Source of the DNA: an archaeon
GTDB taxonomy: Archaea > Nanobdellota > Nanobdellia > Woesearchaeales > UBA9642
Reading direction: 5' to 3'
NCBI GenBank assembly: GCA_043806035.1
Contig: JAZDHK010000029.1
Span: 1 to 64,000 of the forward strand
DNA: 64,000 nucleotides
Each line of letters starts with the position of its first letter. Positions within the stretch are counted from its first letter, which is position 1. Both the position numbers and the translations under genes were made by a program. The notes beneath the pieces were generated by a model. It made no database searches. It was given only the letters and a program-made list of their open reading frames with translations, and was not told the origin of the DNA. This document shows, in pieces, positions 32,759-62,111 of the stretch.

Positions 32759-35700
32759 ACAGAACTCTTGCTGACATTCCGGGAAAGCAGGACAAAAAAG
32801 AGCTCGTGCTCTACATTGCGCTCATCCTCGTCATCGGCATGCTTGCCCTCTCCGGGCTGTATATCGTCGGTAAATTCATCGGCATGGCATTCCATGCGGG
32901 TCAGGCAGGATACATTTATCAGATCAACATCCTGCAAAAACAGCAGTCAGCATACTGGATGGGCGTGTACGGCGTAGCCGTACGCGTGCCCGACTACACC
33001 AACGAAATTTATTATCCAGCATCTGGCGGTGGCATGCTTGAAGCAAATCTTTTATTTGAATGCCTGCAACCGGGCATAGAGCATGAGGTGTACGCCAGCC
33101 AAGTTCCCAGTTCAAGTATCGATTGGGCAACATTGCAGCCTGCGACAACTACTGATGTTGATGACTATGTAGAACTCTCGGCCTCTGCCGCCGCCTCGGG
33201 AACGTCAACATTTCAGATAACGCAATCCTACCAAGTAGGATCTACAACGTACAATGCACCAGCGACCTTCACGTACAAGGAAGGCGAGCTCACTCCCGCA
33301 ACCTTCGATCTTGGTGTGCTCAAAGACGGGAATGGCAATCTGGTTTTTGTCACGCACATCATGAACTTCACCTCAGGATTCAACGGACGACTGTACAATT
33401 ATCAGCTCATGATCCCTGTTCGGTTCAATACAACACCAACCTATTACTTTTTTACAGACAGGAATGATGTCTGTCCGGAAGGAGAAGGGCAAGGGGCGAG
33501 TTTCGGCAGAGTCTATGGCAACGTCACCACCAACGCAGGTATACCCGTAGAAGGGGTCATTGTTGAAGTCGCCGGCTACACCACTCTCACGGATGCAAAT
33601 GGATTCTATAACCTCTCGACACGAGAAGGAGAGCACAACATCTATGCAATAAAGACCGGTTACAATGTCTACAAGAACAATGTAACGGTGATTGCAGGCA
33701 ATGAGACAGAGCACAACATCATCATGGTCCTCAATGCAGTCCCTAACCCGAACACGGGACCCGGGCAGAATGATAATACTGACGTCAATCCTGACATCGG
33801 ACCGAGTGAAGAGGACCAGACAGAATCCAATACTGACGTCGGCCCTGGTGAGGCGCCTCTCGTCCCTATCCTCGAGCAGCCCAAACTCATCGAGGGCAAA
33901 GACTACATCATCAGCGTCAAGGAAATAAACAGGAAGCTGCTCGTCGGCAACTTCCTCCAGGAAATCATCAGCTTCTACAGCTTCAAAAAAACACAAGCAA
34001 CCCTCACCTTTTCCGTTTCTGGTGATGTTGCAGACCTCATCAAACTAGACAAGTCAGGACTTGTCCTCAACCCCAATGCAAACGACCAACTTACGCTCAC
34101 CATCTTTGGCAAAGGCGAACCGAAATTGTACACGGGAAATTTGACCATCGACGGAGACATCAACGAGACCATCCCTATAACAATCGACTTACTCAGCCCA
34201 GACCGGCTTCCCGTAGAGGCGTTGCTCATCAGGCTCGATCCTGTCAAGAGAACCATGTTCCCAGGAGACACGTTCAAGTTCGAAACCAACCTCCAAAATC
34301 TCCTCTCCGATCAGGAATATCCTGTTGCACTCAGCTTCACTGCGCAGGATGCCGCTGGAGACAAGACCATATGGACGGACCAGGCGAATGTCTACATCAA
34401 GACAAGTTTCAGCATCATCAAAGGATTCAAAATTCCAGAGAACACTCCTCCTGGAGATTACGTCATCAGGGTGTCTGCGCACTATCTGGGATTGAGCGGA
34501 GGGTCCAGCACGGCATTCATCATTTCCCTGCCGTTCTACCAATACATGGTGTTCGGCCTGCTGCCGCTCTGGAAGATAGCGCTTATTCTTGCAGGCATGC
34601 TCCTCATCATCGGCATACTCTTGTATGTGAAGAGGAATATTGAAAGCAAGAAAAAATATCATCTCACGGTCGAATATGGTGAATTGCCGCAGCCAGGACC
34701 TAAGACCATCTTCGTCGGCAAGATTGCGGAGACCGATCACAAGGCGTATTTTCAGCTCAACAATTTCAAGACGCACACGATTACGGCGGGAGCGACGGGC
34801 GGAGGAAAATCCTTTGCCGCACAAGGTCTTGTTGAGGAAGCACTCTTGAAAAACGTCTGCGTCTTCGTCTTCGACCCAACTGCGCAATGGTCGGGCATGC
34901 TGCGAAAATGCACGGACAAAGGCATCCTTGCATTGTATCCTCCGTTCGGCATGAAACCGACGCAAGCCAAGGCATTCAACGGCAACATCAGGCAAATAAC
35001 CAACCCGCTCGAGAAGGTGAACATTCACAAATATTTGAAGCCAGGGGAAATCCAAATTTTTGCCTGCAACAAGATGGACCCTAAAGACATAGACATTTTT
35101 GTGGCGAACACCATAAAAGAAGTGTTCCACTCCAACTTCGACGAAAGCCAAGATCTCAGGCTGCTGCTCGTCTACGATGAAGTGCATCGACTGCTGCCAA
35201 AATTCGGCGGCTCGGGCGAGGGATTCCTGCAAATTGAGCGTGGCTGTAGAGAGTTCAGAAAATGGGGCGTAGGCATACTGCTCATCTCGCAAGTGCTCGC
35301 AGATTTCGTCGGACAGATCAAGGCGAACATCAATACAGAAATCCAGATGAGGACGAGGGATGAAGGTGACCTGGAAAGAATCAGGGTCAAATACGGTGAG
35401 GGCGTCCTGCAGAGCCTCGTGAAGGCGAGCGTGGGAACGGGCATGGTAGAAAATCCTGCCTACAACAGAGGCAGGCCGTACTTCATCAGTTTCAGACCCA
35501 TCCTGCACAGCGTCCAACGACTGAGTGATGAAGAACTGGAGAAGTACAACAAGTATAATGAAATCATCGACGACCTGTACTACCAGCTCGACCAGCTCGA
35601 ACAGGAAAAGCTCGATGTCTTCGACCTGCGACTGGAACTCAAACTTTCTCTGGACAAGGTGAAGTCAGGAAATTTCAACATGGTCGATATTTACTTAGAA

Positions 35701-37503
35701 GGACTCACGCCACGAATAGAAACACAATGGAAGAAAATAGGGAAGACGCCAAAAAAGTACACAGTAGAACTGGTGAGCGCAGCAGAAATTCAGGAAGAGC
35801 TCAAGAAGGCGCAGGCAGAACGTGCAAAATTCGAGGCAGAGCAGAAGAAGAACGACGTGCAGCAACAGCAAGAGACTGTCCAAAAGAAAAGGTTGCTCTT
35901 CGACAAGACGCTCGACTTCAAGCAGGCGTTGAATTTCAAGAACGGCACGACCGTGCTGAGCCTGCAGGAACTCCTTGACGTCCTGCCCAACATCAGCCCA
36001 AGCATCTACGTCCAGCATGTCAGCCAGAATAAGCACGATGTTGCGGACTGGGTGGAGAAGAACTTCAGCGCCACGCTCGGACAGAGTATCAGGGCAGTCA
36101 AAAAGAATGAAGAGATTGTCAAGCTGCTGCAAGATGCAAAAGACAAGAAGATGGAAGAGGAATCACCAACATCTCCTGCGCCAGTAGCAATCACTTCTCA
36201 AGATTTGAAAGCAGAGGAGATGAAGGCGTTCCAGGAAATGGCTCAACCCGTCAGCCAAACTCCTGAAAAACAACAAACAGCTGATGTACCTGCAGCTCCG
36301 GATGTACCTGCAGTGCAACAGCAGGAAGCGGCAACAGCAACGTCACCTGCAGCCAACGTGCAAGAGCCTGTTCCTGTACAGGCATCCGTACAGGAAACAC
36401 CCACTGTGCAAGCTGACGTACAAGAATCTGCTTCTGTACAGACATCCGTGCAGGCACCGATAATACAAGCTGGCGTGCAAGAGCCTACATCCGTGCAAGA
36501 AACACCTGCAGTGCAAGCTAGCGTGCAGGAACTTGCTTCTGTGCAGACACCTGTGCAGCAAGCTCCTGAAACTGCACCTCAAGAAACTGTTTCTCCAGTA
36601 CAAGCAGTTGCACCACCTGCATCACCACAGACGGGCACCGTGCAGGAGCAAACACCATCAGCACCTCCTGTGCAGCAGGAGGTTGTTGCCGTTCCACCTG
36701 CAAGCATGCCTGCTTTAGCTCTTGCAGAATCGCAGCAAGCACAGAAGTCTCCACCTCTTCCATCTCCTGTTCAAGAGCCAGTTGTAGAGACAGTACAACA
36801 AATACCCCTCCCGCAAGTCAGCACACAAGAACTGCAAGCAACTACGCCTGCAACGCCACCTGCTGAAGAATCTGTGCCACCAGCAACGACAGAAATCACA
36901 ACTCCAATCCAAGCAAAGGTTGAGACAACGCAACTTTCCCCTGTACAGGAGGTGGCAACAGCTCCACCAGATATAGCTGTGCCCACATCGCCCATACAAT
37001 CGGAGCAGCAAGCAGCGCCAGTCCAAGAACACCAGATCGTGACACCGCAGATTGCAACGACCGCCGAACAGCAAACCACTCCCGTCGTTCAAGAAACAAC
37101 ACCGCAACAAGAAGAGTCAGGAACATCATCTGTGGCGCAAGCTCCTGTACCACCTGTACAACAAGATTCCGTGCAAACACCTGCGCCCTCTTCTCAAGCA
37201 CAGACATCACAGACATTGGAGACGATAACCAAATCAGCATCCTATCACGTGAGTACAAAGGCCATCCCTGAAGACAAGTACTTCTATGCACGGGACGGAA
37301 AGGCCATGAAGACCATCACTGACTTAAAGGAAGAGCTCACGGTGATGCCTGACGATGAATTCAACCACCACGTCACGCAAGACAGAAACGATTTTGCCAA
37401 CTGGATACGTGACGTGTTTGAGGACAGAGAACTCGGAGACCAACTCCTGAGAGCACACAGTAGGACGGACATGCGAAACATACTGGTCGCATACGGGTAT
37501 TGA
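32755..37503 (+). CDS. Membrane-spanning HerA/FtsK/VirB4-like (DUF87-type) ATPase with extracellular domains and DUF5752-like domains
   Basis: N-terminal TM, ~550 aa of beta-rich ectodomain, second TM (~34540-34630), GATGGGKS (34789-34812), VFVFDP, LLLVYDEVH, REFRKWG and LISQ. These are followed by a coiled coil and two HV..N(D/H)..(N/D)W domains separated by a Q/P/T/V/A linker. Confidence 0.85.
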   Translation: MNRTLADIPGKQDKKELVLYIALILVIGMLALSGLYIVGKFIGMAFHAGQAGYIYQINILQKQQSAYWMGVYGVAVRVPDYTNEIYYPASGGGMLEANLLFECLQPGIEHEVYASQVPSSSIDWATLQPATTTDVDDYVELSASAAASGTSTFQITQSYQVGSTTYNAPATFTYKEGELTPATFDLGVLKDGNGNLVFVTHIMNFTSGFNGRLYNYQLMIPVRFNTTPTYYFFTDRNDVCPEGEGQGASFGRVYGNVTTNAGIPVEGVIVEVAGYTTLTDANGFYNLSTREGEHNIYAIKTGYNVYKNNVTVIAGNETEHNIIMVLNAVPNPNTGPGQNDNTDVNPDIGPSEEDQTESNTDVGPGEAPLVPILEQPKLIEGKDYIISVKEINRKLLVGNFLQEIISFYSFKKTQATLTFSVSGDVADLIKLDKSGLVLNPNANDQLTLTIFGKGEPKLYTGNLTIDGDINETIPITIDLLSPDRLPVEALLIRLDPVKRTMFPGDTFKFETNLQNLLSDQEYPVALSFTAQDAAGDKTIWTDQANVYIKTSFSIIKGFKIPENTPPGDYVIRVSAHYLGLSGGSSTAFIISLPFYQYMVFGLLPLWKIALILAGMLLIIGILLYVKRNIESKKKYHLTVEYGELPQPGPKTIFVGKIAETDHKAYFQLNNFKTHTITAGATGGGKSFAAQGLVEEALLKNVCVFVFDPTAQWSGMLRKCTDKGILALYPPFGMKPTQAKAFNGNIRQITNPLEKVNIHKYLKPGEIQIFACNKMDPKDIDIFVANTIKEVFHSNFDESQDLRLLLVYDEVHRLLPKFGGSGEGFLQIERGCREFRKWGVGILLISQVLADFVGQIKANINTEIQMRTRDEGDLERIRVKYGEGVLQSLVKASVGTGMVENPAYNRGRPYFISFRPILHSVQRLSDEELEKYNKYNEIIDDLYYQLDQLEQEKLDVFDLRLELKLSLDKVKSGNFNMVDIYLEGLTPRIETQWKKIGKTPKKYTVELVSAAEIQEELKKAQAERAKFEAEQKKNDVQQQQETVQKKRLLFDKTLDFKQALNFKNGTTVLSLQELLDVLPNISPSIYVQHVSQNKHDVADWVEKNFSATLGQSIRAVKKNEEIVKLLQDAKDKKMEEESPTSPAPVAITSQDLKAEEMKAFQEMAQPVSQTPEKQQTADVPAAPDVPAVQQQEAATATSPAANVQEPVPVQASVQETPTVQADVQESASVQTSVQAPIIQAGVQEPTSVQETPAVQASVQELASVQTPVQQAPETAPQETVSPVQAVAPPASPQTGTVQEQTPSAPPVQQEVVAVPPASMPALALAESQQAQKSPPLPSPVQEPVVETVQQIPLPQVSTQELQATTPATPPAEESVPPATTEITTPIQAKVETTQLSPVQEVATAPPDIAVPTSPIQSEQQAAPVQEHQIVTPQIATTAEQQTTPVVQETTPQQEESGTSSVAQAPVPPVQQDSVQTPAPSSQAQTSQTLETITKSASYHVSTKAIPEDKYFYARDGKAMKTITDLKEELTVMPDDEFNHHVTQDRNDFANWIRDVFEDRELGDQLLRAHSRTDMRNILVAYGY
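36150..37230 (+). repeat. Low-complexity Q/P/V/T/A-rich linker with imperfect VQE repeats
   Basis: Recurring VQEP, VQET, VQAS and VQTP units in the 1582-aa ORF. Confidence 0.8.
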
Positions 37504-37505
37504 CG

Positions 37506-38180
37506 ATGGAACTTGCAACCGCAGACAAAGCGTTCATGACCGCACGAGGAGAACCCATCAGGAGCATCATCGAGCTGCGCTATGCCCTGCTCGTCATGAG
37601 CGATGACATCTTCAGCAAGCACGTCACTGCAGAGAAGAATGACTTCTCAGTCTGGATACGGGATGTCTTCCATCGTAACGACATCGCCGATGCTGTACAA
37701 AAACAGACGACACGACAAGGCATCATCTCCATACTTGAAACCTATGCCAATCAGGCAAATGCCATCAAAGAGTTCGGTGTTGAGCAGCAGACACCAGATG
37801 ACCTTTCTATGCAGGCAGAGAAGCTCAAGGAACGCATCAACGACATCAAAGAACAGTCCACGCAGATAAAAACAATCATGGGCAATGATAGCTACGCCGT
37901 CAGAGTGATGCGCACCCAAGCCCGATTCAAAGGCCTCAGGGAAAAAATAACTGCAGCACGAAAAGCAGGCCATGATTTGTTCGTTGTTGAGATGCAATGC
38001 CAGCAGATAAAGCCAAAATTCCTCTACCTAGAATATGGCGTCCATGAGGAAGAGCTCGGAAAGATCAACCAACTGCTCGACAAGCTCGAAGCAGAGATTG
38101 CAGAGGCCACTGCAGAACCAATATTCGATATCAGAAAAGAAATGCGCGCAGCGCTAGGCATACCTGAGAAGGAGGAATAG
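37506..38180 (+). CDS. DUF5752-like domain protein with a C-terminal helical region
   Basis: FMTARGEPIRSIIEL...FSKHVTAEKNDFSVWIRDVF, homologous to the C-terminal domain of the upstream ATPase. The start is 37500 or 37506. Confidence 0.75.
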   Translation: MELATADKAFMTARGEPIRSIIELRYALLVMSDDIFSKHVTAEKNDFSVWIRDVFHRNDIADAVQKQTTRQGIISILETYANQANAIKEFGVEQQTPDDLSMQAEKLKERINDIKEQSTQIKTIMGNDSYAVRVMRTQARFKGLREKITAARKAGHDLFVVEMQCQQIKPKFLYLEYGVHEEELGKINQLLDKLEAEIAEATAEPIFDIRKEMRAALGIPEKEE

Positions 38181-38246
38181 CAGAGAACTAATCATCACGT
38201 ATAGTAAACTATATGAAGAGAACAGCATAAAAGAGAAAAGAGGTGG

Positions 38247-40423: not shown

Positions 40424-40999
40424 GTGACGACAAGGATAGAACAGGACATCGTGCATGTTTTTGCGAGAGACCTGACGCGGAGCTACAGCATCCATCAACT
40501 TTCGAAAGAACTCCACAAGCAATACCCCTCAATCCACAGGACAGCAACGAGGATGATTCGCGAGGGCATCCTCACCAAAAACGTTATCGGCAGAAGTTTT
40601 CTGTGCAGCCTCAACTTCCATGAACCGCAAGCGGCACTGCTTTTTGCCCAAGCAGAACTGCAGCAACGAAACGCATTCTTTTCCGCAAGAGAAAACAAGA
40701 ATAGCAACCTGCTCAAGACGCTAAACCTGCTTACCAAGCAACTACCCATCAAACTCATCCTTCACGTGCATAACAGCTACTACGTGGTTGTCCCTGAAGA
40801 GACGAAGCGCCAACTACACTTCCTGCCGAACACCGTCGTCCTGCTCACCCGTGAAGAATTCCAGACAAAACTGCTCAACGATACTGCACTGCTCAAAGAG
40901 AAGACGGTCATATATTCATTTGAAAGCTATGCCGAAATGATAGCAGATGTACAGGACCAGATTAGGGTCAAGTGGCTCTTGGAGGGAAAACATGCGTAA
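40424..40999 (+). CDS. Winged-helix DNA-binding protein, possibly with a degenerate nucleotidyltransferase-like C-terminus
   Basis: YSIHQLSKELHKQYPSIHR...EGIL...IGRS wHTH pattern. It overlaps the start of the giant gene by 8 nt. Confidence 0.7.
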   Translation: MTTRIEQDIVHVFARDLTRSYSIHQLSKELHKQYPSIHRTATRMIREGILTKNVIGRSFLCSLNFHEPQAALLFAQAELQQRNAFFSARENKNSNLLKTLNLLTKQLPIKLILHVHNSYYVVVPEETKRQLHFLPNTVVLLTREEFQTKLLNDTALLKEKTVIYSFESYAEMIADVQDQIRVKWLLEGKHA

Positions 41000-55900: not shown

Positions 55901-58900
55901 CACGTTCGAAGGACAGCCGAACAATAATGCCAACATGAGCATCTACATCTACAATTTCAACACCAACCAATGGAATCTGGCGACGTGGCAGTTCTATACT
56001 GCGGACACGGATGCGGTCATGACCGCAACCACTACAAACATTGCAGATTACGTGAACCAGACGAGCACGGTGCGCTGGCTCGTCACGCAGAACAGGACAG
56101 CAGACATCATGCGTGTCGACTACGTCAGCCTGAACGTTACGTATCAGAAGAACAAAGGAATCATCAGCAACATTACAGGAAGCATTCCTTTCTACACCAC
56201 TGATCCCAATCCTAATGATTACACGAACATCTCCTGCCTTGCCAATCTCACTGCAGGGGAGAGCTGCAGAGTGACTTGGAACGTCAACGCCACAGGACCC
56301 ATAGGCAGCGTGCACGAATTCTTCGCCTACTTCAACGCTACGACGTACTCTTCTGTCAACGCAAGCCAAACGCCAAAAGTGAACATCACCATCTACGATG
56401 CGGCAAGCGTCCCTCCCACCGTAATATTGCTCAGCCCAGCCAACTTGAGCTATACGAATCAGGCGACGCTCAACTTCACCTGTGCAGTCAGTGACAATTA
56501 TGTGGTAGAAAATGCAACGTTGTATGCAGATTTCAACGGTACCTTCCAGGCGAACGAGTCTCGGGGGATAGGTGTAGCAGAAGCGAATGTGAGCTTCAAC
56601 AAGACACTCGCCGATGGCACGTACGTGTGGAATTGTCTCGCGTATGACAACCAAGGCAATCCCGCATGGGCATACGAGAACTGGACGGTGCACATAGACA
56701 CGCAGCCACCGTTCATTAACCTATCCGCACCAGAGAACCTCAGCAACGTCAGCGATGACGATGTCTACTTCAATTTCACCATCACGGATGAACTGTCGGA
56801 AAACTTCACATGTAACCTCACTGAAGACGGCGGCGTCAAATATCTGTACTGGAATGTCTCCAATGATACGTTCACGAGCTGGAACGTCTCCGGGAACATG
56901 CTCGGCCAGCACGAATGGTTCGTCTCCTGCATAGACCTCGCAGGCAACTATGCAGAGAGTGACACGCTGCTCTTCAACGTCCTCGACTTCCCGCCGAGCG
57001 TCTATCTCATCACGCAAGAGAATGCCAGCTTCAACATCCCCAATGTCAGCCTCTATTATAATGCGACGGATCTTATCGGTGTTATCCTTGCACGCCTTTT
57101 GCTCGATGGTGAGCTGAACGATACGCAGAACAATCCTCTGAATGGTGTTGCTGTGGCATTCAATGTCTCGGGCCTCACCGAGGGTTGGCATAATTGGACG
57201 GTGAACGTCTCGGACATCAGCAGCCTCTCCGATCAAGCAGCGCTACAGCAGTTCCTCATCGACCTCAGCATGCCCAGCATCCTGCTCAACAGTCCTCCTG
57301 ATGCGAATGTCACTAACGAAAGCCAGGTAATTGTCAACTTCACGGCATCGGACAATTATGCAGACATTCTGCTCTGCAACCTCACCGTCAATGACAACAT
57401 CCAGACAACAGACATCATTGCATACAACACCCAGCCAACGACGACGAACATGACGAGTCTGTGGGATGGCAGCAATTACTGGAATGTCACCTGCAGCGAT
57501 GATGCAGGGAACGTGAACGTCTCCGAAACAAGAGTCATCAACGTCAGTCAACCTCCTGTCGTGGTGCTCGACAGTCCTGCGGATAATCAGTCACAGCGCC
57601 TGTCCGCATTGCTTCTCTACTACACACCAACAGACAACACCAACATCAGCTCCTGTTCGCTCTATCTCGATGGTCAATGGAACCAGACCGAATGGGTCAT
57701 ACTGAACGGCGTGCAGCATAGTTTCTTCGTCGACAATCTCATCGAGGCAACGTACGAATGGAATGTGACGTGTAACGACACCATCAACCTCACTGGGTAT
57801 TCCGAGACAAGAAGATTCACCGTTGATCGGACAGGACCCATCATCACGCTCATAAGCCCGGGATTGGGCGATACGTGGTACGGCAAGATGACGAATTTCA
57901 CATTCAACGCGACGGACAATGTCGGCAAGAACATAACCTGCAATCTCACCGTCGATGATACGCTGCAGCTCTACAATCAAACAATCGACAACGGGTCTAC
58001 CGTGACGTTCAATACGACGATAACGAATGAAGGCACGCACTACTGGAACGTCTCCTGTACCGATCCTGTGGGGAATAGCAACACCAGTGAGACGTGGTGG
58101 TATCAGAGCTTCAACCCACCATCAGTAACGCTCGTCCAACCCACGCCGAATGCGCTCTACAATGCCAGCACGACCATCTTCCTCTACATCCCCTCTGACG
58201 AGAATCTCACGCTCGCCATATTGGTCATTGATGGAGTGAACAACGAGACGAACACGTCGCTTATATCTGATGTCGAGAACAGCTTCACCGTCTCTTTGCC
58301 TGATGGTGTCCATACCTGGACGGTCAATGTTACGGACAACAACAGCCTCTCTACCATCCCTGCAGCGGTGACCTTCACTATCGACACAACTCCTCCTGAT
58401 ATTGTCATGAATACCCCTTTGCAGGATGATGTTCTGACGTGGAACAACGTCCTGTTCAGCTTTAACGTCAGCGATGTGCTGAGCAGCGCCATGCTTTGCA
58501 CCATTACCATTAATGACGCTCCGGTCTTCGAGAACATCCCTGCAAGCAATGGCAGCACTATCACCCGATACAAGAACTTCACGGACGGTAACTATAACTG
58601 GTCGGTGCTGTGCAAGGACTCGGCGAACAACACCCACCAGCACGAGCTTGTTAATTTCAGTGTGGAGGCACCCCCCACTATCACGCTTAACTCCCCGACA
58701 GACAATGCGCGACTGAAGACAACGACGCCGACATTCGATTATACGCCATCGGACTTTTTTGGCATCACGAACTGCACGCTCTACATCAACGGTACTGAGA
58801 ACGGCACGAACAGCAGCATCACGCCTAACGTCCCCAACTACTTCACGCGGACGCTCCTCGAAGGGGACTATTATTGGACGGTCATCTGCATCGATGCATA

Positions 58901-61900
58901 CGATGACAATCCAGGAACGGCACCTGCTGAGAACTTCACCCTCGATATCTCTGGGCCAAGCATCGTACTCGACCAGCCAGACCCGGACACAACGTTTAAT
59001 CAGGATTTCGTCTTCTTCAACTGGACCGCAACAGACTATTCTGTGCTGATCACGTGCAATCTCAGCATCGATGGAGCGGTGAACGTATCAGGACTGAATG
59101 CAGTAAGCCCTGCACTGCTCAACACCACGGTCTTCTCATTCCCTGCCGGCAATCACACGTGGAATGTGACGTGTTGGGATGATCTGATGAACGTCCAGCA
59201 ATCTGAGAACAGGACATTCACCATCAACAACCCTGACCTGATCATCAATGCGTCAGCAATCTCTTTCAACGAGACGAACCCGAGAGAGAATGCGACACTC
59301 ACCATCTCTGCGAACGTCAGCAACATCGGCGGCACGAATGCGCAGGATGTCCTTGTGCAGTTTTTCGATAACGGCGTGCAGATCAGCAACAGCACGAACA
59401 ACATTACCTATAATTCGAGCAAGGTCTTCACTGCACTCTGGAACATCACCCGAGAATTCCACGACATCACTGTCGTCATTGATCCCCTTGATACCATCAC
59501 TGAGCTTGACGAGGACAACAATAATGCGACAACCAACATGACGTTGCTCATCTCCGAAATCCTCGATCCCCAGAATGATACGTGGATGAACCAGCTGAGC
59601 ACGGCATTCACGGTCCGCATCGCTGACTTCACTGGAACACTGCTCGACTACACTGCATACATTGATGGCAACAGCAACGAATCAGGAACGGCAAACGATA
59701 ATGAGAGTTTCATCCTCAACCTCGACTTCTTTGAAGGGACGCACATCGTGACGGTAGAAGCACGTGATGGGTTGTCGAGACGAAGGAATGCAACCCCACT
59801 CACCATACACGTCGATGTCACGCCGCCATCACCGAACATCACCTTGCCCAACATGAGCTGGTTCAACACCACCACGCCGAACATTACCTTTATCGTCAGA
59901 GATAATGCAGACCTGAGCATCAACTATACGTTCTACCTGAACGATACTATCATCGATGCAAACGTCACCGCGAACAACACGCCAAACTATGTTATCCTAC
60001 CCTCAAGACCTGAAGGGGCGTACGTGCTCATCCTCGAAGCGATTGACGAAGCAGGCAATGCCGCAAACACAACACCTTTCACCTACTTCATAGATACTAC
60101 TCCTCCTGATATCGTTCTCGACAAGCCAGATCAGGGAGCGAATTTCAGCACGAGAAATGTCACGCTGAACTTCACCCTCACGGACAACCTTGCACCGAAC
60201 GCCACGTATGCTCTCATCCTTGACACGGGAGAGGTTGCGCAAGGGACTATAGACGTCCCTGCACTCCTCGAGTACAATGCGACCGACCTGGTTGAAGGTG
60301 TGCACTTCTGGAACGTCACTGCCCGTGATGCCGCGAACAATTCGAACAGTTCAGTGACACGAGACTTCGGCGTGTACATCGCACCCATCATCACGCTGAT
60401 CTCACCGCCTAACGATTCTTGGACGAACAATGCTACGGTCACGTTCTTCTTCAACCTCACGGAAGAGACAGGACTGGAGAATTGCAGTGTCATGATTGAG
60501 GGAGGCAGCATCGCCACCAAACAAGGTGACGAATTGAACACGATCGGAACGAATAACATCACAGCAGTTCTCCCCGATGGGCAGCAGAACTGGTCCATCC
60601 GGTGCTATGATAACACGAGCATGTACGTCATGGCTTCGTCAGAGGAAAGGACGCTCAATGTCGACACAAGCCCTCCTGAAGCAGCATTCATCACACTAAA
60701 CGAATCATGGTATAATGCAACTCCCGTCAACATCAGCTTCACCCTGAGTGATGATCAGGCATTGCAGCTCAACTACACCATCTATGTTGCAGGACAGGTG
60801 AATGCAACAGGACAGGTGGACAATGCAACACCCTCATGGGATCTGCTCTCCTTGGCAGAAGGCTACCATGCGCTCATCTTGGAGGCGACTGACTGGGCAT
60901 TGAACAGGTACAACACGACACCCTTGCTCGTCATCGTCGACCTCAACGCCCCGAACATCACACTCCACGAACCACTGCCAGGCAACATGACCGATAATGA
61001 GAATGTCACCTTCAACTTTACAATCACTGATGCCATTGTCGAGAACATCTCGTGCAGCCTCCTTGTATCAGGGAATGACAGCATCAACCTCACCGTCACG
61101 AATAACACTGTCAGCAACTACACGTTCTACAACCTCTCTGCAGGACTGCATTATTGGAACGTGACGTGCTGGGACTATGTCAACAACACGCAAACATCAT
61201 CAACGAGAAATTTCACCATTCCCCGACCTGACCTTGAAGTGAATGCGGCATTCATCACCACCAACAATACTTGGCCGAAGGAGAACGAGACCATCATGAT
61301 AAATGCGACCGTGCGGAACATAGGCAATACTGCAGCAGGCGCGTTCATCGTCCAATTCTTCAGAACACACCCGAACAACAGCATGCAAATAGGAGACAAT
61401 GTAACAATAGACAGCCTCGCGCCGGGAGAGAACGTGACGCTGAACATCACCTACACGACTATTCTCGGCATCAATGACATCTATGTCCTTGCAGATGCAC
61501 CGCTGCCAACTGGACAAGTCGTGGAAGAGAATGAAAGCAATAACCTCAACCATAAGATCATCGATGTCAGCAGCTGGAACTTCATCTCCGGCAACACGTC
61601 AGGTCTCATTGCCCTGACCAATCTTGGCAATGACACTATCTTTACGTGGAATGTTGAGAACATCACGGGCAGCATCATCTATGTCATAGACGCGGATAGC
61701 GCCATCCATTGGACGAACCTCACCGCTCTCGGAAGAAGGACGAATGGAGTAAGCAACGTCGCTGATTTCCTGACTCTTGACAGCATACTCGATCTTACGA
61801 ACAACTCTGACAGCATAAACAAGACCTATACGAGTGCAGGACTGCCTTTGTTGGAGAGGAACATGACTTTGTATGATAAGACTGTGCTGAACATTCCGCA

Positions 61901-62111
61901 GGCGAACAGCACGAACACCAGCGATTTCTTGACGGGCATCCTCTGGGACGCGGGGGATGGCGGTGTTGCCTACACGGGAGCGCAGGATGTGGTATTCGTC
62001 ACCACACTCAATGATACGGATACGAATGACTTCGAGATACGCGTACCCGCGACACTGCGCAGCTACACGGGCAGTACAGACCAAGTCGACTTTTTCGTGG
62101 AGCTACGATGA
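40992..62111 (+). CDS. Giant (~7039 aa) secreted modular surface protein/adhesin
   Basis: Signal peptide MRKLALFLILLACLPWTA after GGAGG, an MG2-like domain, four propeller-like repeats, LamG domains, DUF2341-like, Cys-rich modules, ~16 Ig-like repeats and 2 CARDB-like domains. N-x-S/T sequons are very dense and there is no C-terminal TM. Confidence 0.92.
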   Translation: MRKLALFLILLACLPWTAGFILNVTNESVPLQPFTMELLGDIPADAYLTITLPDGTLLKNNKLQPTMEFIPQQEGKYLVQLLSPERQELSEATIRVRSDGKNNTQYRTNASAQVNNTAMVMTANETADDNLTDVANASRDVITISNYPYLVGWPMTILLPEGTDVLDIQTPTSQARYLGAVTEPVAFVPREQGNYTIIASRNGETFAKTFIVEEQQPIPRSSIFIGDKEALPVDMTFYASSGKTELVLSLKEQPIRMHFFNLTQQERYVIKFKQVQKFTTIENKQVQALYAIDPSALNFSSATLTIRARGTAVWKCKEWDFDQDTCEGSWQQLLNLTPGQDYTLNLTPEDPGFAETGLATINAKKPIYHPGETAELFMVVLDQQGYLVPDAQLTLAITDPDGNITSDTPITNISRGIYASNYTTQGEGTYWLAVTAVSDSVNYTMYSSFLVNASFPFDIIRETPLTIDPWTENLTSTITVYAEREEEFSLTETFSANMTVLDAGGAVQSSVADRTQLTWQLINGSSVHYTLLPPLETPALYDFQAHITSSSGTYTEARPWFLAVDPQFASTGGYDVELAALDNRTIVVAWIDSGTGGNATFAVYDTNGTQLVKQVLDTTGDAQSRISVEAINSTHFIIQQIDGPGTNNAAFYIYRRDGGVVQGRTALNANVGTNNDVATCELGDVFSTLYINDQNNQADFQMFLNDGTQTVAQTAAIGNVNPGAREQNLVDCAVINSTRWVYAAFNDQTNRINIALRSEDGTSIIAATNVDNSVGETAQVAATGLRNNSFALAYYHSTAQSINLTVINTASDTFDTTWTTGVDDDAGGDGWLSLAEIEDNGKSYIALVWQDATDNAIKATVYASDGMLLTPTFVVATQSATRKLIDIVGYSSHASMGLCPGTFIVVYANATEEAVFDRFFINGNAWNGSCEYTPPLAAYTGQTPPNHQATSNTSFIVNVSINESDLWKATWLWNGAAYALFDTTLLAKYNFNNVSAIGDTASLAVDVSSNGANATVTNANWTASGKHGGAYTFADAGYLMANISYAPLFTIGAWVKASVGSPADYQTVLNKEFSSSNRNFWLGLWTDGKARLQFSSSSSVTDCDAAGSTDLRDGRWHYLAGVYDGANCILYVDGVVKATDAVTATPQGVDANLSIGYAIGDAGRGLVGSIDEVTIFNTSMNTSAVQELGMSNLYKYAQDKWNFTINQSALKTGINTYQLLSTDITGSMNRTGLRDIKYYKYGLLDDEPAIDLDTTALDSTTVVVAWIDGGNYDANFQVWSTTGMVLVNETKVDTTGNSESRIAVTAINSTHFAIELSDGYDNATTLYIYNRSGQNVVDRTILNANVGTYTDTALCELTDSLAVLYANDNDNDADMQMYWNDGTQRTIETPVDGNMGPEALQQNLVDCASLNSDLWVYFWFDDASNYVDIAALNGDGTIVRGATAVDTTAGETAQVATMGVKNDVFGLLYYDSSTSEILFGIRNVTATVFQTMLANTVIDADAGADSRVSMTEVENTLGESYFVTAWVDSADNTIKAAIYDSNGLQITAPFVAVSDVSTVNIIDLVGTASLINTGLCTEKFGLAYVNGSYATVFKTFNLDGSVWNGVCDKTPANMTFTSPTLPDNSSTAQPFIAFNLTITEPDLRDIVLEWNRTSYTLLGLTTLLYFNFDNISALEESDTVVKDMSTNNFTATTNATLVAGKYGKAFWFNDSQAVILENNAVLDITQFTIASWIKADVGGPADYQTIISKEAYVSGDQDRNFWLGLWTDGKARLQFSSSSSVTDCDAAGSVDLRDGQWHYLVGVYDGADCTLYVDGMLDATDPVSAAPEGSGYNVSIGAELGQSGRGFVGSIDEVRVSRSAAPPELVQQFFISNLNKVNMENWTLFANETNLTPQNYNYIVRAVDTYGTTGVANRSASYYRSYFDDYGFVDVSMTALDSTTVVVAWIDEELDDASFKIMSTTGAQLIGEVDIDTDGTALNRIAVTPIDANKFAILLIDNSTVSFFIYNRTGGKVVDRTLIDASVDIYTDAAACELGTTLALLYANDNDNDADFQMYWNDGAQRTGENFVDGGMNPEDVQQNLIDCAALGATRWIYAWFDDGSNVVSMAARDETGTAVVGQTNVDGAVGETAHVAAAALRDNRFAYAFYDSTTSALSFTVRNLTGAAFGNTRANTVIDANTGVDSRVSVAEIESSGSSYFVVTWLNYNDSTIKAAVFNATGGQVTAPFNITTKTNTSLPLFSVVGYDSLLGFGLCDERFMIAYTNDTGQATLAGYLIDGRQWDGICDRTPPVIAFVSPTPPDKSSTTNDYVVVNVSINDSALGNVAWTWDDLQFVIYNDSTTLLINLDNVSALGESDSVVVDSSIYAKTGSATNKTIPADCKRNACAAFAANGLINFSSDTTNTLRDNFTISMWINDAAAAQDVQLDKGTYAIRDDYTGGDCSNPGRWQFFVNRSGTPICVEDTAAHPQNVWQHIVAVKNSTSINLYVDGTLKATTSASGLINENALSLLLAAGHDGSHFNGSIDEIAIYNRALNASEVQQLSMTFLTRYGFSSNISRWLLYSNTTNLSLGMHTYFVDVTDVSYNPASTGNRTISRYNTTFVDDTPFIDVDSTALDNVTVVVAWIDADSLQASFQVRNTNKTVIVGEIDVDLNVTTTSRISVTAINSTHFVVVVNDGVDQALDFYIYHRNGTLIYTSRISANIGTNTDTAVCELGDRFVITYANGANLQYDTQIYWNNGTRITAQTALDGNMLPEDTLQNLGDCAVISSTRWIGNWYDDSVDDVYVSLRNEVGTAVLGTGSIDSDVGDTGQVATTGMRNNTFVVVFYDATADTAYFEIRDVTGDSSYALIADNTIVNTQVGGQSRVSVAELDMDGKSYFVMTWWNSQNGTLLASVFNQTGFQITPPFVVDDMPSAYPLLDVVADDSHLNLGLCNGTFAIAYTNASSQAVLKTYFVNGTPWHGYCDFAGPDVTLDRPPTNGTITTLQYMVNATVSDVSPVVNVSFWFRPDNTSSWQLACVATPSGGKANCTWDLNGLTESSTYEIMAYGEDIAGNIGPNSTHYNITVSLGLPILNNMQCYKSGSWQSCTNVVYDNTLAGVRVNCTSEVATISNVTFNLTNIPDAALYFMNTTTNYTGGYLTLWLSRTINDSGPFTLTALCEDNQSGTRSSSTTWLVPWGTLTGTLLDPTSPLDVVQNTTFNFSARVSCTGGECGTANATLDPDIGWWNRNWSYRQNVTIVSVANTTLLEFPIFLSVAKDPFMSANYSDLRFLDGSCGNTSALLAFEIENYTDSDASIWVRVNVSLGNNSICMYYGNDNVSAADDRTGTWNSNYALVYHMNYTGEDSTSNARDRVANVGVPTNVSGYLGYGLSFDGRNDAWSEANLPYWETAFSTRTFEVVFETGLDINTRQVLFAEGSTTNGVMLYLLNGQLYARWWSETYGWTGHYFNTSVNSNTKYHSILEYRYPGVIGIDNFTFYLNGQVIGTNQTSANIGAHTANGGIAYTGSSNKDFHDLTGAGYYFAGTMYEFRALDTTVGKEYANQSYQQLINYNQHIFFSNPEPQSKGTIPMLAGDPFYTTTQNPQDSIFTPCLDILPGNTCDVSWIVNATGPISTVWEFFVIQEPNYYAGWYNASISNRVNITIVDKLRPKVQSISCQRNSTTWVGCSAIVYGNNITAVRANCTYSGGEPIVNATFTLRNVNDNNTYFSNTTFDNTTAYWLLNISQLILDGGNFSIEVNCSADAPGAMGWNWTNWTIPFGKLLGNWYTPTTNVNVTQHRFSTYILNISCSEGECGNITAELDPPTAFVLASMNFETPSDFANYDTDCPTSTTCVTSTPWDEFDNCLAGNGGYGICSSSNASAVGSRGLECRACDRNDASNAGGVYIYVNSTPCGGYPCQSLNLSFYQVVEGLDNVNEGSAVLVNDTDGTLRIAASCIDTDPYCDCNSIAGCSRANMGTYAQFVTVDLCQVLGISCNEPLTIRFTSYTTTNNLDGSDYLAWDNISLTGYVNKGTIPMVDSTPFYTTDLNPINATNLTCLANMQSGNWCLVSWNVNATGPLYSIHDLFGIFNSTYPITNITRSIRVNITGNYPPIVSSITLLPTLPVSTDNLNCSFKVTDANFFDNLSANITFYVNGTYFNSTLMNVTRNIMYSLFINNTETSPGDVWMCGVTPYDQYLWGNQTNSSNVSVLISQPPFITTIQCQEKSTWQSCSGVQYNEVLQGVRANCTDVDGFVRNVTFSLFNVEDNITFFTSTTMTKTAGYYTIGSLNINFSNSGRYNLSVLCYDDADIGVSNISNWTLPWGMFNVSWIQPTTNITMRQNQTGNFSVLVTCLQGECNNATVVLDPMQAYPYAYMDFEPGTDFKVFDGACPTSAYTCSDSSPWDDFDDCQESATPYSMCVSTGVNSGSTGARGLECRGCDRADVGNDGGLHINITPRFCNGYVCSSINVSYYQGTYGLTLATHGSAVWVRDADSIWRLVSNCMNGDTCESTTLNTMGSDAKYVMTDLCTISGIDCSEELELFFTSNNTVNHGWGQYFGWDKINITGYGEKGIIPMGSGTPFYTLQANPAYPANYSCLTNMSLGQNCTVYWIVNATGELGLTHEVFAYANSSVYPSYIPQNQSKHIYVTITGNVLPSVVDAIVFPIAPLNDSDLYCNFTITDTNYFDSLGANVTWYRNNVSFSTVQVAALINQVTSVNLTADNTEVGEYWHCGVKPFDETGYGNQTNSTARLILLYPPPSVDVIECSVSDEWGPCSRAIYYTNISQVRANCSSAFALTNVTFNLTNSPDNTTYFSNTTTDFVDVYFVLDNDDVNITDSGQFTLNVQCMDEMNQTATKNVNWTVPWGNLTGELLSPATATSVQYLDFFTFIVRVSCSGGECGDVNATLDPYNGTVLYDFLTGYTTDKWPYQVISNNRPPESNPVSRVLLSQAQTALINATDNNRWATGNPGANRYISLDMVMDLNESKSEITQLKFTFEGQPNNNANMSIYIYNFNTNQWNLATWQFYTADTDAVMTATTTNIADYVNQTSTVRWLVTQNRTADIMRVDYVSLNVTYQKNKGIISNITGSIPFYTTDPNPNDYTNISCLANLTAGESCRVTWNVNATGPIGSVHEFFAYFNATTYSSVNASQTPKVNITIYDAASVPPTVILLSPANLSYTNQATLNFTCAVSDNYVVENATLYADFNGTFQANESRGIGVAEANVSFNKTLADGTYVWNCLAYDNQGNPAWAYENWTVHIDTQPPFINLSAPENLSNVSDDDVYFNFTITDELSENFTCNLTEDGGVKYLYWNVSNDTFTSWNVSGNMLGQHEWFVSCIDLAGNYAESDTLLFNVLDFPPSVYLITQENASFNIPNVSLYYNATDLIGVILARLLLDGELNDTQNNPLNGVAVAFNVSGLTEGWHNWTVNVSDISSLSDQAALQQFLIDLSMPSILLNSPPDANVTNESQVIVNFTASDNYADILLCNLTVNDNIQTTDIIAYNTQPTTTNMTSLWDGSNYWNVTCSDDAGNVNVSETRVINVSQPPVVVLDSPADNQSQRLSALLLYYTPTDNTNISSCSLYLDGQWNQTEWVILNGVQHSFFVDNLIEATYEWNVTCNDTINLTGYSETRRFTVDRTGPIITLISPGLGDTWYGKMTNFTFNATDNVGKNITCNLTVDDTLQLYNQTIDNGSTVTFNTTITNEGTHYWNVSCTDPVGNSNTSETWWYQSFNPPSVTLVQPTPNALYNASTTIFLYIPSDENLTLAILVIDGVNNETNTSLISDVENSFTVSLPDGVHTWTVNVTDNNSLSTIPAAVTFTIDTTPPDIVMNTPLQDDVLTWNNVLFSFNVSDVLSSAMLCTITINDAPVFENIPASNGSTITRYKNFTDGNYNWSVLCKDSANNTHQHELVNFSVEAPPTITLNSPTDNARLKTTTPTFDYTPSDFFGITNCTLYINGTENGTNSSITPNVPNYFTRTLLEGDYYWTVICIDAYDDNPGTAPAENFTLDISGPSIVLDQPDPDTTFNQDFVFFNWTATDYSVLITCNLSIDGAVNVSGLNAVSPALLNTTVFSFPAGNHTWNVTCWDDLMNVQQSENRTFTINNPDLIINASAISFNETNPRENATLTISANVSNIGGTNAQDVLVQFFDNGVQISNSTNNITYNSSKVFTALWNITREFHDITVVIDPLDTITELDEDNNNATTNMTLLISEILDPQNDTWMNQLSTAFTVRIADFTGTLLDYTAYIDGNSNESGTANDNESFILNLDFFEGTHIVTVEARDGLSRRRNATPLTIHVDVTPPSPNITLPNMSWFNTTTPNITFIVRDNADLSINYTFYLNDTIIDANVTANNTPNYVILPSRPEGAYVLILEAIDEAGNAANTTPFTYFIDTTPPDIVLDKPDQGANFSTRNVTLNFTLTDNLAPNATYALILDTGEVAQGTIDVPALLEYNATDLVEGVHFWNVTARDAANNSNSSVTRDFGVYIAPIITLISPPNDSWTNNATVTFFFNLTEETGLENCSVMIEGGSIATKQGDELNTIGTNNITAVLPDGQQNWSIRCYDNTSMYVMASSEERTLNVDTSPPEAAFITLNESWYNATPVNISFTLSDDQALQLNYTIYVAGQVNATGQVDNATPSWDLLSLAEGYHALILEATDWALNRYNTTPLLVIVDLNAPNITLHEPLPGNMTDNENVTFNFTITDAIVENISCSLLVSGNDSINLTVTNNTVSNYTFYNLSAGLHYWNVTCWDYVNNTQTSSTRNFTIPRPDLEVNAAFITTNNTWPKENETIMINATVRNIGNTAAGAFIVQFFRTHPNNSMQIGDNVTIDSLAPGENVTLNITYTTILGINDIYVLADAPLPTGQVVEENESNNLNHKIIDVSSWNFISGNTSGLIALTNLGNDTIFTWNVENITGSIIYVIDADSAIHWTNLTALGRRTNGVSNVADFLTLDSILDLTNNSDSINKTYTSAGLPLLERNMTLYDKTVLNIPQANSTNTSDFLTGILWDAGDGGVAYTGAQDVVFVTTLNDTDTNDFEIRVPATLRSYTGSTDQVDFFVELR
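42711..49880 (+). repeat. Four tandem modules with ~2030-nt period (propeller-like domain, followed by LamG in the first three)
   Basis: ALD.tt.VVAWID starts at ~42711, 44739, 46776 and 48807, and each ends in W.G.C(D/E). Confidence 0.85.
44232..46354 (+). repeat. 80-nt near-identical direct repeat (44232-44311 and 46275-46354)
   Basis: 78/80 identity, encoding WLGLWTDGKARLQFSSSSSVTDCDAAG in two LamG domains. Confidence 0.9.

Follow-up and report, generated by a model that had tools for sequence, protein, structure and literature searches.

A previously undescribed domain shared by a membrane HerA-type ATPase and anchorless giant proteins of a woesearchaeal locus, and its probable role in docking

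The locus analysed here encodes a membrane ATPase of the HerA/DUF87 type and giant secreted proteins without a membrane anchor, both of which carry copies of one and the same domain. Judging from a complex model, the giants are probably plugged onto the motor ATPase by means of this domain, and the locus resembles an adhesin-motor of the SPEARE type that has been split and is kept together by the shared module. We take this module of about 190 aa, with fair confidence, to serve for extracellular docking within a surface apparatus that is conserved in Woesearchaeota-type (DPANN) archaea, and in which an A-type socket would clamp a B-type plug.

Giant surface proteins and SPEARE-type motors, which have so far resisted study, are the prime suspects for the means by which DPANN archaea hold on to their hosts and exploit them. 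The present locus splits such a machine into parts, among them a small pair of foldable domains (about 190 aa each) that are predicted to bind and whose contact could be studied by expression, binding, mutation and structure analysis without culturing the organism. The docking reading would also account for the retention of anchorless giants by a cell lacking an outer membrane, for the constant position of the domain at the extreme C-terminus, and for the display of several different adhesins and cargo proteins by a single motor.

The shared domain and its subtypes

The window (the whole stretch of 64,000 nt that was analysed; contig C29) derives from a tiny archaeon of the symbiotic type, and all features below lie on its + strand. 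Delineation by hhalign and an hmmsearch of the own genome placed the ATPase copy of the domain (A-type) at residues 48–236 (32896..33462) and the giant copy (B-type) at residues 6877–7054 of the first giant (61575..62108), in agreement with the location proposed in the preliminary description. The match, which had been recognized there by eye, is not provable from the pair alone, since BLASTP of one segment against the other gave no significant result (best E 1.6). Profiles were therefore compared, built from 30 ATPase N-termini, 8 giant C-termini and 90 small proteins. The ATPase and giant profiles matched each other in hhalign with a probability of 94.7% (E 5.6e-8), and the small-protein profile was matched by that of the ATPases at 99.7% (E 5.8e-26) and by that of the giants at 98.0% (E 1.7e-13), as compared to no more than 1.2% (E of 0.04 or higher) in seven controls that used profiles either reversed or unrelated. 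In addition, the ATPase and giant segments both matched the small ORFs in the genome, and the order of secondary-structure elements was identical in two AF2 models of the domain. The similarity of the two segments is real.

Five out of the six motif pairs noticed by eye fall in register within the ATPase–giant alignment; the sixth (TYYFFTD / QVDFFVE) lies past its end, although both of its members map to the last strand of the small-protein profile. The extra N-terminal strand of the ATPase copy (AGQAGYIYQINI; the strand comprises residues 48–65), for which no counterpart had been seen in the giant, is indeed absent there, but it does have a counterpart in the small proteins.

Overall, the family comprises three old subtypes. 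A-type domains are located directly after the first transmembrane segment (TM1) of the membrane HerA/DUF87-type ATPase; B-type domains terminate large adhesin-like proteins that are secreted and not anchored in the membrane; and C-type domains constitute small secreted proteins as well as the C-termini of mid-size cargo proteins. In a quick tree the A (30 rows) and B (18 rows) sequences each occupied one side of a branch (SH-aLRT 98). The N-terminal segment is kept in C-type and systematically lost in B-type only: the 12 B-type sequences that were aligned all have the domain directly after the ExxExNN motif of the preceding domain, so that this terminal (tip-like) copy lacks the segment that would be the donor. 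In the first giant this motif belongs to the Pfam match of the last CARDB domain (61227..61547; E 1.1e-11), whose end precedes the first conserved W of the shared domain by 9 residues, thus leaving no room for an N-terminal segment. A further mark of the B-type is an acidic TGILWD..D motif, which is invariant. The family has 1515 representatives at E 0.001 or better, and among the longer proteins within the best 150 the domain ends at most 4 residues from the C-terminus in 36 out of 36, as would be expected if the last strand formed part of the plug.

No Pfam, NCBIfam or PDB relative of the domain, which is unnamed and previously undescribed, was found in the libraries searched. Pfam and NCBIfam scans of the small subunits and of the giant tail returned no family; Pfam run on all 91 members with E up to 1 yielded scattered matches only (1–2 members each); a sequence-profile search of PDB gave nothing below E 0.68 for the domain; and Foldseek against PDB and BFVD gave no domain match at E 0.001 or better. 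In ESM Atlas only Woesearchaeota clusters annotated as 'hypothetical' were retrieved, the structural neighbours outside the family having TM below 0.3. A full-text literature search found no description of the domain or of a split adhesin/ATPase pair. A paper on a Thermococcales Ig module (PMC8416519) was considered and set aside as dealing with a different subject; the words ATPase, HerA and FtsK are absent from its available text.

Organization and conservation of the locus

The ATPase (1582 aa; 32755..37503) consists of TM1, an ectodomain of about 550 aa, TM2, a P-loop ATPase, a coiled coil and a long tail of low complexity that contains two DUF5752-like modules. A hydropathy scan detected two TMs, at residues 14–45 (32794..32889) and 597–629 (34543..34641). 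Within the ectodomain, the A-type domain is followed by a CarboxypepD_reg-like beta-sandwich (residues 254–324, 33514..33726; Pfam PF13715 at E 0.0018, under the cut-off, with PF13620 precomputed on many homologues) and by a membrane-proximal 'stalk' delimited by BLASTP (about residues 376–600; 33880..34554). TM2 directly precedes the cytoplasmic core (residues 626–982; 34630..35700), which passes the gathering score of DUF87 (PF01935; 36.4 bits for the core and 30.5 bits for the whole protein vs. a cut-off of 23.2) and matches PDB HerA chains at E 8e-7. The Walker A (AGATGGGKS) and Walker B (VYDEVH, in LLVYDEVH) motifs are intact, and G679–K685 and D808/E809 are invariant across 30 homologues. 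The heptad-like stretch at about residues 925–1000 was assigned by eye only. Neither a second ATPase of this kind nor a fused giant form was found in the own genome.

Upstream, a TrmB-type transcription regulator (28603..29337; Pfam TrmB, E 6.2e-14) stands at the head of the locus as context, followed by a 931-aa surface protein (29963..32758) with a signal peptide, one TM (residues 772–806) and PKD and CarboxypepD_reg-like domains, the stop codon of which overlaps the ATPase start. Its homologue directly precedes the ATPase in 11 out of 11 relatives' loci and in 54 of the 56 loci that have at least 3 kb of upstream sequence. Downstream are a 226-aa cytoplasmic protein with a DUF5752-like module (37500..38180) and a 339-aa coiled-coil-like protein (38247..39266), a conserved partner whose homologue occurs within 3 kb downstream of the ATPase in 43/48 loci.

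The first giant (7054 aa; 40947..62111) is a secreted protein with MG2, LamG, DUF2341, Big_13 and CARDB domains and 370 N-x-S/T sequons. The hydropathy scan bore out the earlier statement that it has no TM anchor, with none detected beyond the signal peptide (two segments lie right at the threshold of 1.6). The second giant begins within the window (62108..64000) and runs past the contig end into another contig, C20, whose reverse complement overlaps the end of C29 by exactly 141 bp. This 141-mer occurs nowhere else and the reading frame runs on across the junction, the join being an assembly-graph overlap rather than read-level proof. After joining, the second giant is 3643 aa long, has no TM and likewise ends in a B-type domain; the C-terminus of this gene, which starts at 62108, was among the checks proposed in the preliminary description. 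Contig C20 also carries all five small secreted C-type proteins, and the overlap thus brings the ATPase, the two giants and the small subunits into one locus. The stand-alone copies anticipated by the preliminary description exist, as five small secreted paralogues, but they are encoded directly downstream and not elsewhere in the genome. In total, exactly 8 ORFs of this genome bear the domain (one ATPase, two giants and five small proteins).

A comparable arrangement is seen in relatives. In five of them, which are represented by long contigs, one or two large proteins ending in a B-type domain come after the ATPase, and 2–6 C-type genes reside on the ATPase contig; in a sixth, the ATPase is preceded by four C-type genes and a B-type protein of 564 aa. 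Across 80 loci the A-type domain is present on 67 of 81 ATPase ORFs, and a large ORF follows the ATPase in 25 of the 36 loci with at least 8 kb of downstream sequence. Among 150 other genomes of the order, a strong ATPase-type match (E of 1e-15 or lower, with the match beginning no later than query residue 7) was detected in 35, and 30 of these 35 also have a B-type match, as compared to 13 of the remaining 115.

The link to giant membrane motors comes from two fused ORFs of relatives (8055 aa and 5222 aa), in which a signal peptide and one TM precede the ATPase core. The core of our ATPase matches them at E 1e-177 and 1e-175, and the region ahead of their TM shows homology to ATPase residues 375–600 (BLASTP E 7e-16 and 2e-11). 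No A-, B- or C-type domain is present in either fused ORF. Since the homologous ATPase and stalk are fused to a giant ectodomain in relatives, the locus can be viewed as a split SPEARE-type adhesin-motor. The SPEARE proteins ('giant membrane-anchored extracellular proteins') of Nanohaloarchaeota are described, in the passages available, as a LamG-/Ig-rich giant ectodomain, a membrane segment, a cytoplasmic VirB4/HerA-like P-loop ATPase and a coiled coil, with an unproven function (PMC6642349, Hamm et al. 2019; PMC10266531, Reva et al. 2023). The assignment as SPEARE-type is made here by way of the relatives' fused ORFs, the published Nanohaloarchaeota proteins being compared by description. 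As far as described, the common features are a DPANN host and a giant adhesin-like ectodomain coupled to a VirB4/HerA-like ATPase; here too, the ATPase directly follows a TM and is itself followed by a coiled coil (the latter by eye). Unlike in SPEARE, the giants (7054 aa and 3643 aa) are separate anchorless ORFs without a TM, and the ATPase has its own two-TM ectodomain of about 550 aa with no giant part in the chain. A further difference from the SPEARE passages is that both halves carry the shared domain, which also occurs as small free copies.

Predicted docking and alternative readings

The preliminary description had proposed a docking or polymerising module. Its docking part is now supported by profile homology, by the stand-alone copies and by a complex model of the ATPase and giant domains that passes its controls. 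Three runs of this model scored 0.40, 0.77 and 0.77 (median 0.77), as compared to 0.01 for the best of three controls; of 157 solved complexes 116 attain the pass mark applied, and of 215 mismatched pairs 2 do so. The runs share at least 83% of their contacts, with a partner pLDDT of at least 75, and all of this stems from one structure-prediction job with its own shallow alignments (30 + 12 rows). The predicted interface comprises residues 51–65 (the N-strand), 68–72, 92–94, 146–152, 171–174 and 209–219 on the ATPase side, and the first strands (6877–6904) together with the last strand (7046–7053), i.e. the 'plug', on the giant side; ATPase residues 51–65 touch giant residues 6877–6894. Contacts at residues 41–46 of chain 1 probably involve TM1 residues and would sit in the membrane, a point against the model. 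The two domains are modelled as clamping each other, with burial of the giant's own hairpin as well; this is a predicted clamp rather than a demonstrated classical donor-strand exchange.

In the mechanism that we favour, the N-terminal strand of the A-type socket and the groove behind it would grip the B-type domain by its first beta-strands and its C-terminal strand. The Sec-exported giants would be tethered non-covalently to the motor by this contact, so that two polypeptides would recreate the one-chain layout of the relatives (giant ectodomain, stalk, TM, ATPase). C-type subunits, having both socket and plug elements, may extend or bridge the A–B contact. Several observations count against direct docking. 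One of the three runs reached only 0.40, and the B-type domain folded alone has a pLDDT of only 69. The predicted interface is not conserved better than the rest of the domain (0.61 vs. 0.60 in A, 0.50 vs. 0.57 in B). A B-type match occurs in 13 of the 115 genomes without a strong ATPase-type match and the reverse in 5, several of these genomes being incomplete. Finally, no large ORF follows the ATPase in 11 of the 36 loci with at least 8 kb of downstream sequence.

The strongest competitor, doubtful in our opinion yet deserving serious attention, is a filament in which C-type subunits polymerise head to tail between an A-type membrane base and a B-type giant at the distal tip. Giants would then meet the ATPase only via the fibre; apart from the direct A–B touch, this overlaps with the docking reading. 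It is consistent with the five C-type paralogues in the locus (2–9 per genome in relatives), with the fact that C-type retains the plug strands as well as the N-terminal segment, with the acceptor-only character of B-type, which resembles chaperone-usher tip adhesins, and with the large size of the family. On the other hand, the A–B pair is modelled as a confident complex by itself, and C-type genes are less tightly linked to the ATPase than B-type genes, being at times 20–45 kb away. In the C-type monomer model the N-segment packs in cis on its own domain (pLDDT about 88–94). Nor was any likeness to known archaeal filament subunits, a comparison proposed in the preliminary description, returned by Foldseek or by the VIA wide search, where no filament subunit was prominent among the matches (the C-type model reached a best Z of 2.9, with rmsd 4.7 and 122 aligned, and the B-type model, which is of lower confidence, one of 4.1, with rmsd 4.2 and 91 aligned).

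To a bolder version we would give somewhat less credence still, namely a polar socket-and-plug polymer that would be a new archaeal surface structure with a fold unlike any solved, where a chain of C-type subunits links the HerA-type base to exchangeable giants capped by B-type domains and plugs might be exchanged at the expense of ATP. The N-terminal strand of the socket would be tethered within about 5 residues of the motor's first TM helix, so ATP-driven movement could load, exchange or release plugs. If true, energy-driven strand exchange would replace the chaperone and usher of bacterial pili, and host attachment may be coupled to transport through the motor ring.

Distinctly improbable, in our estimate, is the suggestion that the copies bind not each other but the same external component (S-layer, envelope glycan or a host surface molecule), the shared domain reflecting shared localisation only. 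Secreted proteins commonly end in modules that bind a wall or surface, the acidic TGILWD..D motif of B-type could bind metal or sugar, interface residues show no special conservation, and the family occurs in only 57 of 151 sampled genomes of the order (about 38%). This is opposed by the contrast between the complex model and its controls, by the existence of three old subtypes tied to architecture, by the systematic loss of the N-terminal segment in B-type only, and by the relatives in which giant part and ATPase form one chain in the same position. As for a coincidental or merely compositional similarity of the by-eye motifs, to which the BLASTP value lent some colour, it is refuted by the profile comparisons, the common small-ORF matches and the AF2 models, and its likelihood is practically nil.

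Relation to known surface systems

A type IV coupling protein or a CedD/VirB4-TraC-like component was considered and rejected as the identity of the ATPase, as NCBIfam gave only weak matches (CedD 19.0 vs. a cut-off of 600, TraC 18.9 vs. 567, TraD 17.1 vs. 366, and HerA). The P-loop core, the Walker A/B motifs and the membrane anchoring are shared with CedD/TedD, VirB4/TraC and HerA; unlike in type IV coupling proteins and CedD, there is a large ectodomain between two TMs. Pfam scans revealed no pilin, VirB6 or CedA-like gene in the locus.

In chaperone-usher pili (FimH/FimG, PapG), the end domain of the tip adhesin has no N-terminal extension, which the other subunits carry. By analogy, the large adhesin described here ends in a subunit-type domain without such an extension, and an N-terminal strand of the partner takes part in the predicted interface. 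Unlike these pili, the present system has an ATPase as its base and lacks an outer membrane, an usher and a chaperone, and the structure searches revealed no similarity of fold. Closer in lineage are the archaeal donor-strand filaments, i.e. Sulfolobus threads (PMC9715654), Pyrobaculum bundling pili/TasA-like (PMC9245690), Pyrodictium cannulae (PMC12518558) and haloarchaeal Tat-dependent pili (PMC12337348), which according to their abstracts have in common with our system small beta-rich Sec-/Tat-exported subunits, paralogue arrays and proposed strand donation. No sequence or structural match between them and the domain was found by Foldseek, by VIA or by the PDB profile search, and their abstracts mention no ATPase bearing a copy of the subunit fold, unlike here.

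The cohesin–dockerin system is a modular docking pair in which many cargo proteins end in one small module. Membership of the domain in a family of this type found no match in Pfam scans, and, unlike in cohesin–dockerin, the partners here are homologous to each other, with fold and organism unrelated. The likeness lies in the varied cargo proteins, which here too end in a module that would plug into a membrane-tethered partner.

The shared domain and its homologs

A preliminary description, based on an alignment by eye, had placed one and the same domain at the start of the ATPase ectodomain and at the end of the giant protein (giant 1). Direct comparison of the two segments (ATPase 32896-33490 and giant 61530-62108) gave no significant match (BLASTP, E 1.6). 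When each segment was used as a phmmer query on the full ORF set of the 1.5-Mb genome, a bridging ORF of 275 aa emerged on another contig (C20), matched by the ATPase segment with E 3.9e-7 and by the giant segment with E 3.8e-4; among the same ORFs, the tail of giant 1 matched the tail of a giant encoded on C20 (E 3e-35). Profiles were built from 30 ATPases, from 7 giants together with the C20 giant, and from 90 small proteins. Their comparison by hhalign linked ATPase to giant (probability 94.7%, E 5.6e-8), ATPase to small proteins (99.7%, E 5.8e-26) and giant to small proteins (98.0%, E 1.7e-13), while seven controls with reversed or unrelated profiles remained at or below 1.2% (E of at least 0.04). 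Judging from these comparisons, the copies are almost certainly homologous, with the similarity between ATPase and giant demonstrable at the profile level only. The initial observation of a common domain was thereby confirmed, and its collinear motif pairs are in register with the hhalign alignments. We refer to the copy in the ATPase as A-type, to those in the giant tails as B-type, and to the small proteins as C-type.

The N-terminal strand of the A-type copy (AGQAGYIYQINI) aligned to an A-x-AGNVTEL-x-I segment that is conserved in the small proteins. In the giants, the domain begins only at the first conserved W, immediately behind a CARDB domain, in agreement with the earlier remark that this strand has no obvious counterpart there. 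In a quick maximum-likelihood tree, the A-type (30 rows) and B-type (18 rows) sequences each fall on one side of a branch (SH-aLRT 98), and the C-terminal fusions are nested within the C-type. The B-type copies have in common an invariant TGILWD motif and, behind it, an acidic DGG..Y.G.QD loop that is lacking in the C-type (giant residues 6996-7004, window 61932-61958; columns ~145-165 of alignment A2); it could form a metal or sugar site.

The domain belongs to no Pfam or NCBIfam family and has no relative in PDB by sequence. The AlphaFold2 model of the C-type (91 sequences) is confident (pLDDT 92.9, pTM 0.86) and found no Foldseek match in PDB or BFVD, a best VIA Z of 2.9, and only clusters of Woesearchaeota hypothetical proteins in the ESM Atlas. 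The B-type model (12 rows) is weaker (pLDDT 69; best VIA Z 4.1) and has an identical order of strands and helices. The structure searches (PDB, BFVD, VIA), which included the comparison with archaeal filament subunits proposed earlier, brought up neither a known filament subunit nor a lectin or an anchor domain, an absence that does not amount to proof of a new fold. Full-text searches of the main articles in largely open-access literature turned up neither an account of this domain nor one of a split adhesin/ATPase pair. The domain family is new and undescribed.

The family comprises 1515 representatives at E ≤0.001 (549 at E ≤1e-30). Among the best 150 of them are 36 longer proteins (343-2359 aa), in all of which the domain ends no more than four residues from the C-terminus, preceded by N-terminal parts that include beta-helix, LamG and DUF2341 domains. 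Ten of these 36 mid-size proteins, all from other metagenomes (P0144, P0147, P0148, P0157, P0182, P0198, P0217, P0251, P0257 and P0280), have a match to the Nup98-type S59 autopeptidase (PF04096) ~100 residues before the C-type domain, with only one match exceeding the Pfam cut-off. All three inspected sequences with such a match contain HFS, which we take to be the cleavage motif of this autopeptidase family; through self-cleavage, the domain might be released and acquire a free N-terminus.

Reconstruction of the locus

The ATPase (32755-37503, + strand; 1582 aa) has two TM segments by hydropathy scan (residues 14-45 and 597-629), ~550 residues apart. A DUF87/HerA-type P-loop core (Pfam 36.4 bits, cut-off 23.2; HerA chains in PDB at E 8e-7) sits behind the second, and its Walker A and Walker B residues are invariant among 30 homologs. 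The cytoplasmic tail includes two copies of a ~75-aa module with weak DUF5752 matches and a (N/H)D(F/V)..W motif (window 37378-37449), which also forms the N-terminus of a 226-aa protein (37500-37740) and the C-terminus of a 318-aa protein (L002:9593-10549, - strand); this distribution is repeated in relatives, and the module may mediate cytoplasmic interactions.

Giant 1 (40947-62111, + strand; 7054 aa) starts with a signal peptide and contains 370 N-x-S/T sequons. As had been stated before, it lacks a TM anchor, or at least one that is convincing in a hydropathy scan. Giant 2 starts at 62108 and runs past the end of its contig (C29). The last 141 bp of C29 (64273-64413 in window numbering) exactly match the start of reverse-complemented C20 (C20 59280-59420), and this 141-mer is unique among the 42 contigs. 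The open frame continues across the join into the C20 giant, yielding a giant 2 of 3643 aa that lacks TM segments by hydropathy scan and ends in a B-type domain, which answers the question raised earlier about its C-terminus.

Profile searches of the genome identified exactly eight ORFs with the domain: the ATPase, the two giants and five small secreted C-type proteins. The anticipated stand-alone copies thus do exist; all five are encoded on C20, and since C20 joins C29, they belong to the same locus rather than being encoded elsewhere, as was originally supposed. In gene order, the joined locus comprises a TrmB-type regulator, a 931-aa anchored surface protein, the ATPase, the 226-aa protein, a 339-aa coiled-coil-like protein, an opposite-strand gene, a 191-aa protein, giant 1, giant 2, the 318-aa protein, two C-type genes, an HTH gene, one C-type gene, thioredoxins and glycosyltransferases, and, ~13 kb further on, two more C-type genes. 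Small regulator genes of the HTH_38/HTH_23 type (e.g. L002:7011-7484, - strand) are scattered among the C-type genes both here and in six relatives (G078, G113, G096, G087, G149 and G082). C20 also encodes a MetK (L001:11225-12367, - strand) matching the three S-AdoMet_synt Pfam domains, an architecture of the bacterial/eukaryotic type. The genome itself is assigned to the Woesearchaeota-type DPANN archaea by GatD/GatE and by what its top database matches are called.

Predicted docking of the ATPase and giant copies

For the complex prediction, ATPase residues 40-246 were paired with the C-terminal 181 residues of giant 1, an alignment being supplied for either chain. The result was scored as supporting binding, with a median of 0.77 over three runs (0.40, 0.77 and 0.77, one run being weak) versus 0.01 for the best of three controls. 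In benchmarking, 116 of 157 solved complexes reached the pass mark, as did 2 of 215 mismatched pairs; these rates apply only approximately here due to the use of custom alignments. At least 83% of contacts agree between runs, and partner pLDDT is at least 75. The result is unlikely to be memorized because no related structure exists.

On the ATPase side the modeled interface would involve the N-terminal strand (51-65), the first core strand (68-72) and residues 92-94, 146-152, 171-174 and 209-219, and on the giant side the first three strands (6877-6904) and the last strand (7046-7053). According to the residue pairs of lowest expected error, giant L6890 and I6898 lie in a predicted pocket of ATPase residues 64-72, 92-94, 171-174 and 209-219; modeled contacts at 41-46 probably fall within the first TM segment. 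Interface residues are no better conserved than the rest of the domain. Overall, the model leads us to favor, with moderate confidence, direct docking of the ATPase copy to the giant copy. The A-type would then act as a socket dependent on its N-terminal segment, and the B-type as a plug. Such an assignment of roles would account for three facts: the dispensability of the N-terminal segment in the B-type, the invariably C-terminal position of the domain in secreted proteins, and the ATPase being the only protein whose chain can run on past it. The formation of a filament by the small C-type subunits appears rather doubtful.

Fused relatives and conservation of the system

Hamm et al. 2019 (PMC6642349) reported on giant proteins of Nanohaloarchaeota that have a TM segment at the C-terminus and a conserved cytoplasmic part, the latter re-annotated by Reva et al. 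2023 (PMC10266531) as a VirB4/TraG-like ATPase with a coiled coil behind it. The motor roles put forward there, secretion (Reva et al. 2023, PMC10266531) and DNA handling (Hamm et al. 2019, PMC6642349), are both hypotheses. Our search of 201 genomes of the phylum with an ATPase-core profile matched 38, including open frames of 2059-9416 aa. Two fused giants, of 8055 aa (G166:C4 13992-38156) and 5222 aa (G034:C1 117632-133297), consist of a signal peptide, a giant ectodomain, a stalk, a single TM segment near the end and the ATPase core (E 1e-177 and 1e-175, respectively). The 220 residues ahead of their TM segment are homologous to residues 375-600 of the window ATPase (E 7e-16 and 2e-11), which, together with the core match, makes stalk, TM segment and ATPase a shared module. 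No A-, B- or C-type domain was found in this stalk region or elsewhere in the two fused giants. In the fused forms the stalk is preceded by the giant adhesin part, whereas in the window ATPase it is preceded by the first TM segment, the A-type domain and a CarboxypepD_reg-like domain, and the giants are separate proteins ending in B-type domains. In the split form both halves bear the same domain at the break point; G166 encodes both a fused giant and a split A-type form.

When two proteins are fused in one genome and separate in another, this is a well-known indication that they interact. The fused relatives accordingly lend independent support to ATPase-giant docking, and together with the complex model they favor the proposal that the domain links the giant adhesin to the membrane ATPase. 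By published descriptions and fused relatives, the window locus may be likened to a variant of the known, unexplained SPEARE-type systems of Nanohaloarchaeota, in which a giant adhesin-like ectodomain is joined to a cytoplasmic motor.

The locus arrangement is conserved. A homolog of the 931-aa protein lies immediately upstream of the ATPase in all 11 relatives compared, and the coiled-coil protein downstream in all seven whose contig goes on. On the long contigs of five relatives, one or two large proteins with a C-terminal B-type domain come after the ATPase; a sixth has a 564-aa B-type protein and four C-type genes upstream of the ATPase, and each of these six contigs contains 2-6 C-type genes. 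Among 80 further loci collected via the ATPase core, 67 of 81 ATPase ORFs have the A-type domain (about half of the other 14 are cut by contig ends, one is split, and the rest are short forms of ~790 aa). Where the sequence extends at least 3 kb upstream, the upstream partner was identified in 54 of 56 loci; where it extends at least 3 kb downstream, the coiled-coil partner was identified in 43 of 48. For 36 loci the sequence reaches at least 8 kb downstream, and in 25 of these a large ORF on the same strand starts no more than 6 kb downstream; C-type genes lie downstream in at least three of the remaining 11 (L055, L062 and L064).

In 151 sampled genomes of the order, matches were found to the C-type profile in 57, the B-type profile in 44 and the ATPase N-domain query in 55. 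Of the 150 sampled genomes other than the window's own, 35 have a strong full-length ATPase-type match, and 30 of these also have the B-type, versus 13 of the remaining 115, a purely descriptive co-occurrence, as related genomes are not independent. Among 201 genomes sampled across the phylum, with an unspecified number from other orders, all 57 that matched the C-type fall in this order.

Short ATPase paralogs (~770-845 aa) with the same core and stalk occur in L092, L094, L096, L098, L099, L100/L102, L078 and G085:C1 (L003 9365-11779), all of them without an A-type domain. They are located beside a ~620-630-aa B-type protein in four loci (L092, L098, L099 and L100/L102) and adjoin the long form in G085, L078 and L100/L102. 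Many public records with this Woesearchaeota-type ATPase locus (L026-L028, L034, L038, L039, L041 and others) bear the title 'uncultured Methanosarcinales archaeon', and a single one is called 'Candidatus Saccharibacteria bacterium'; such names appear to have been assigned automatically and are at odds with gene content.
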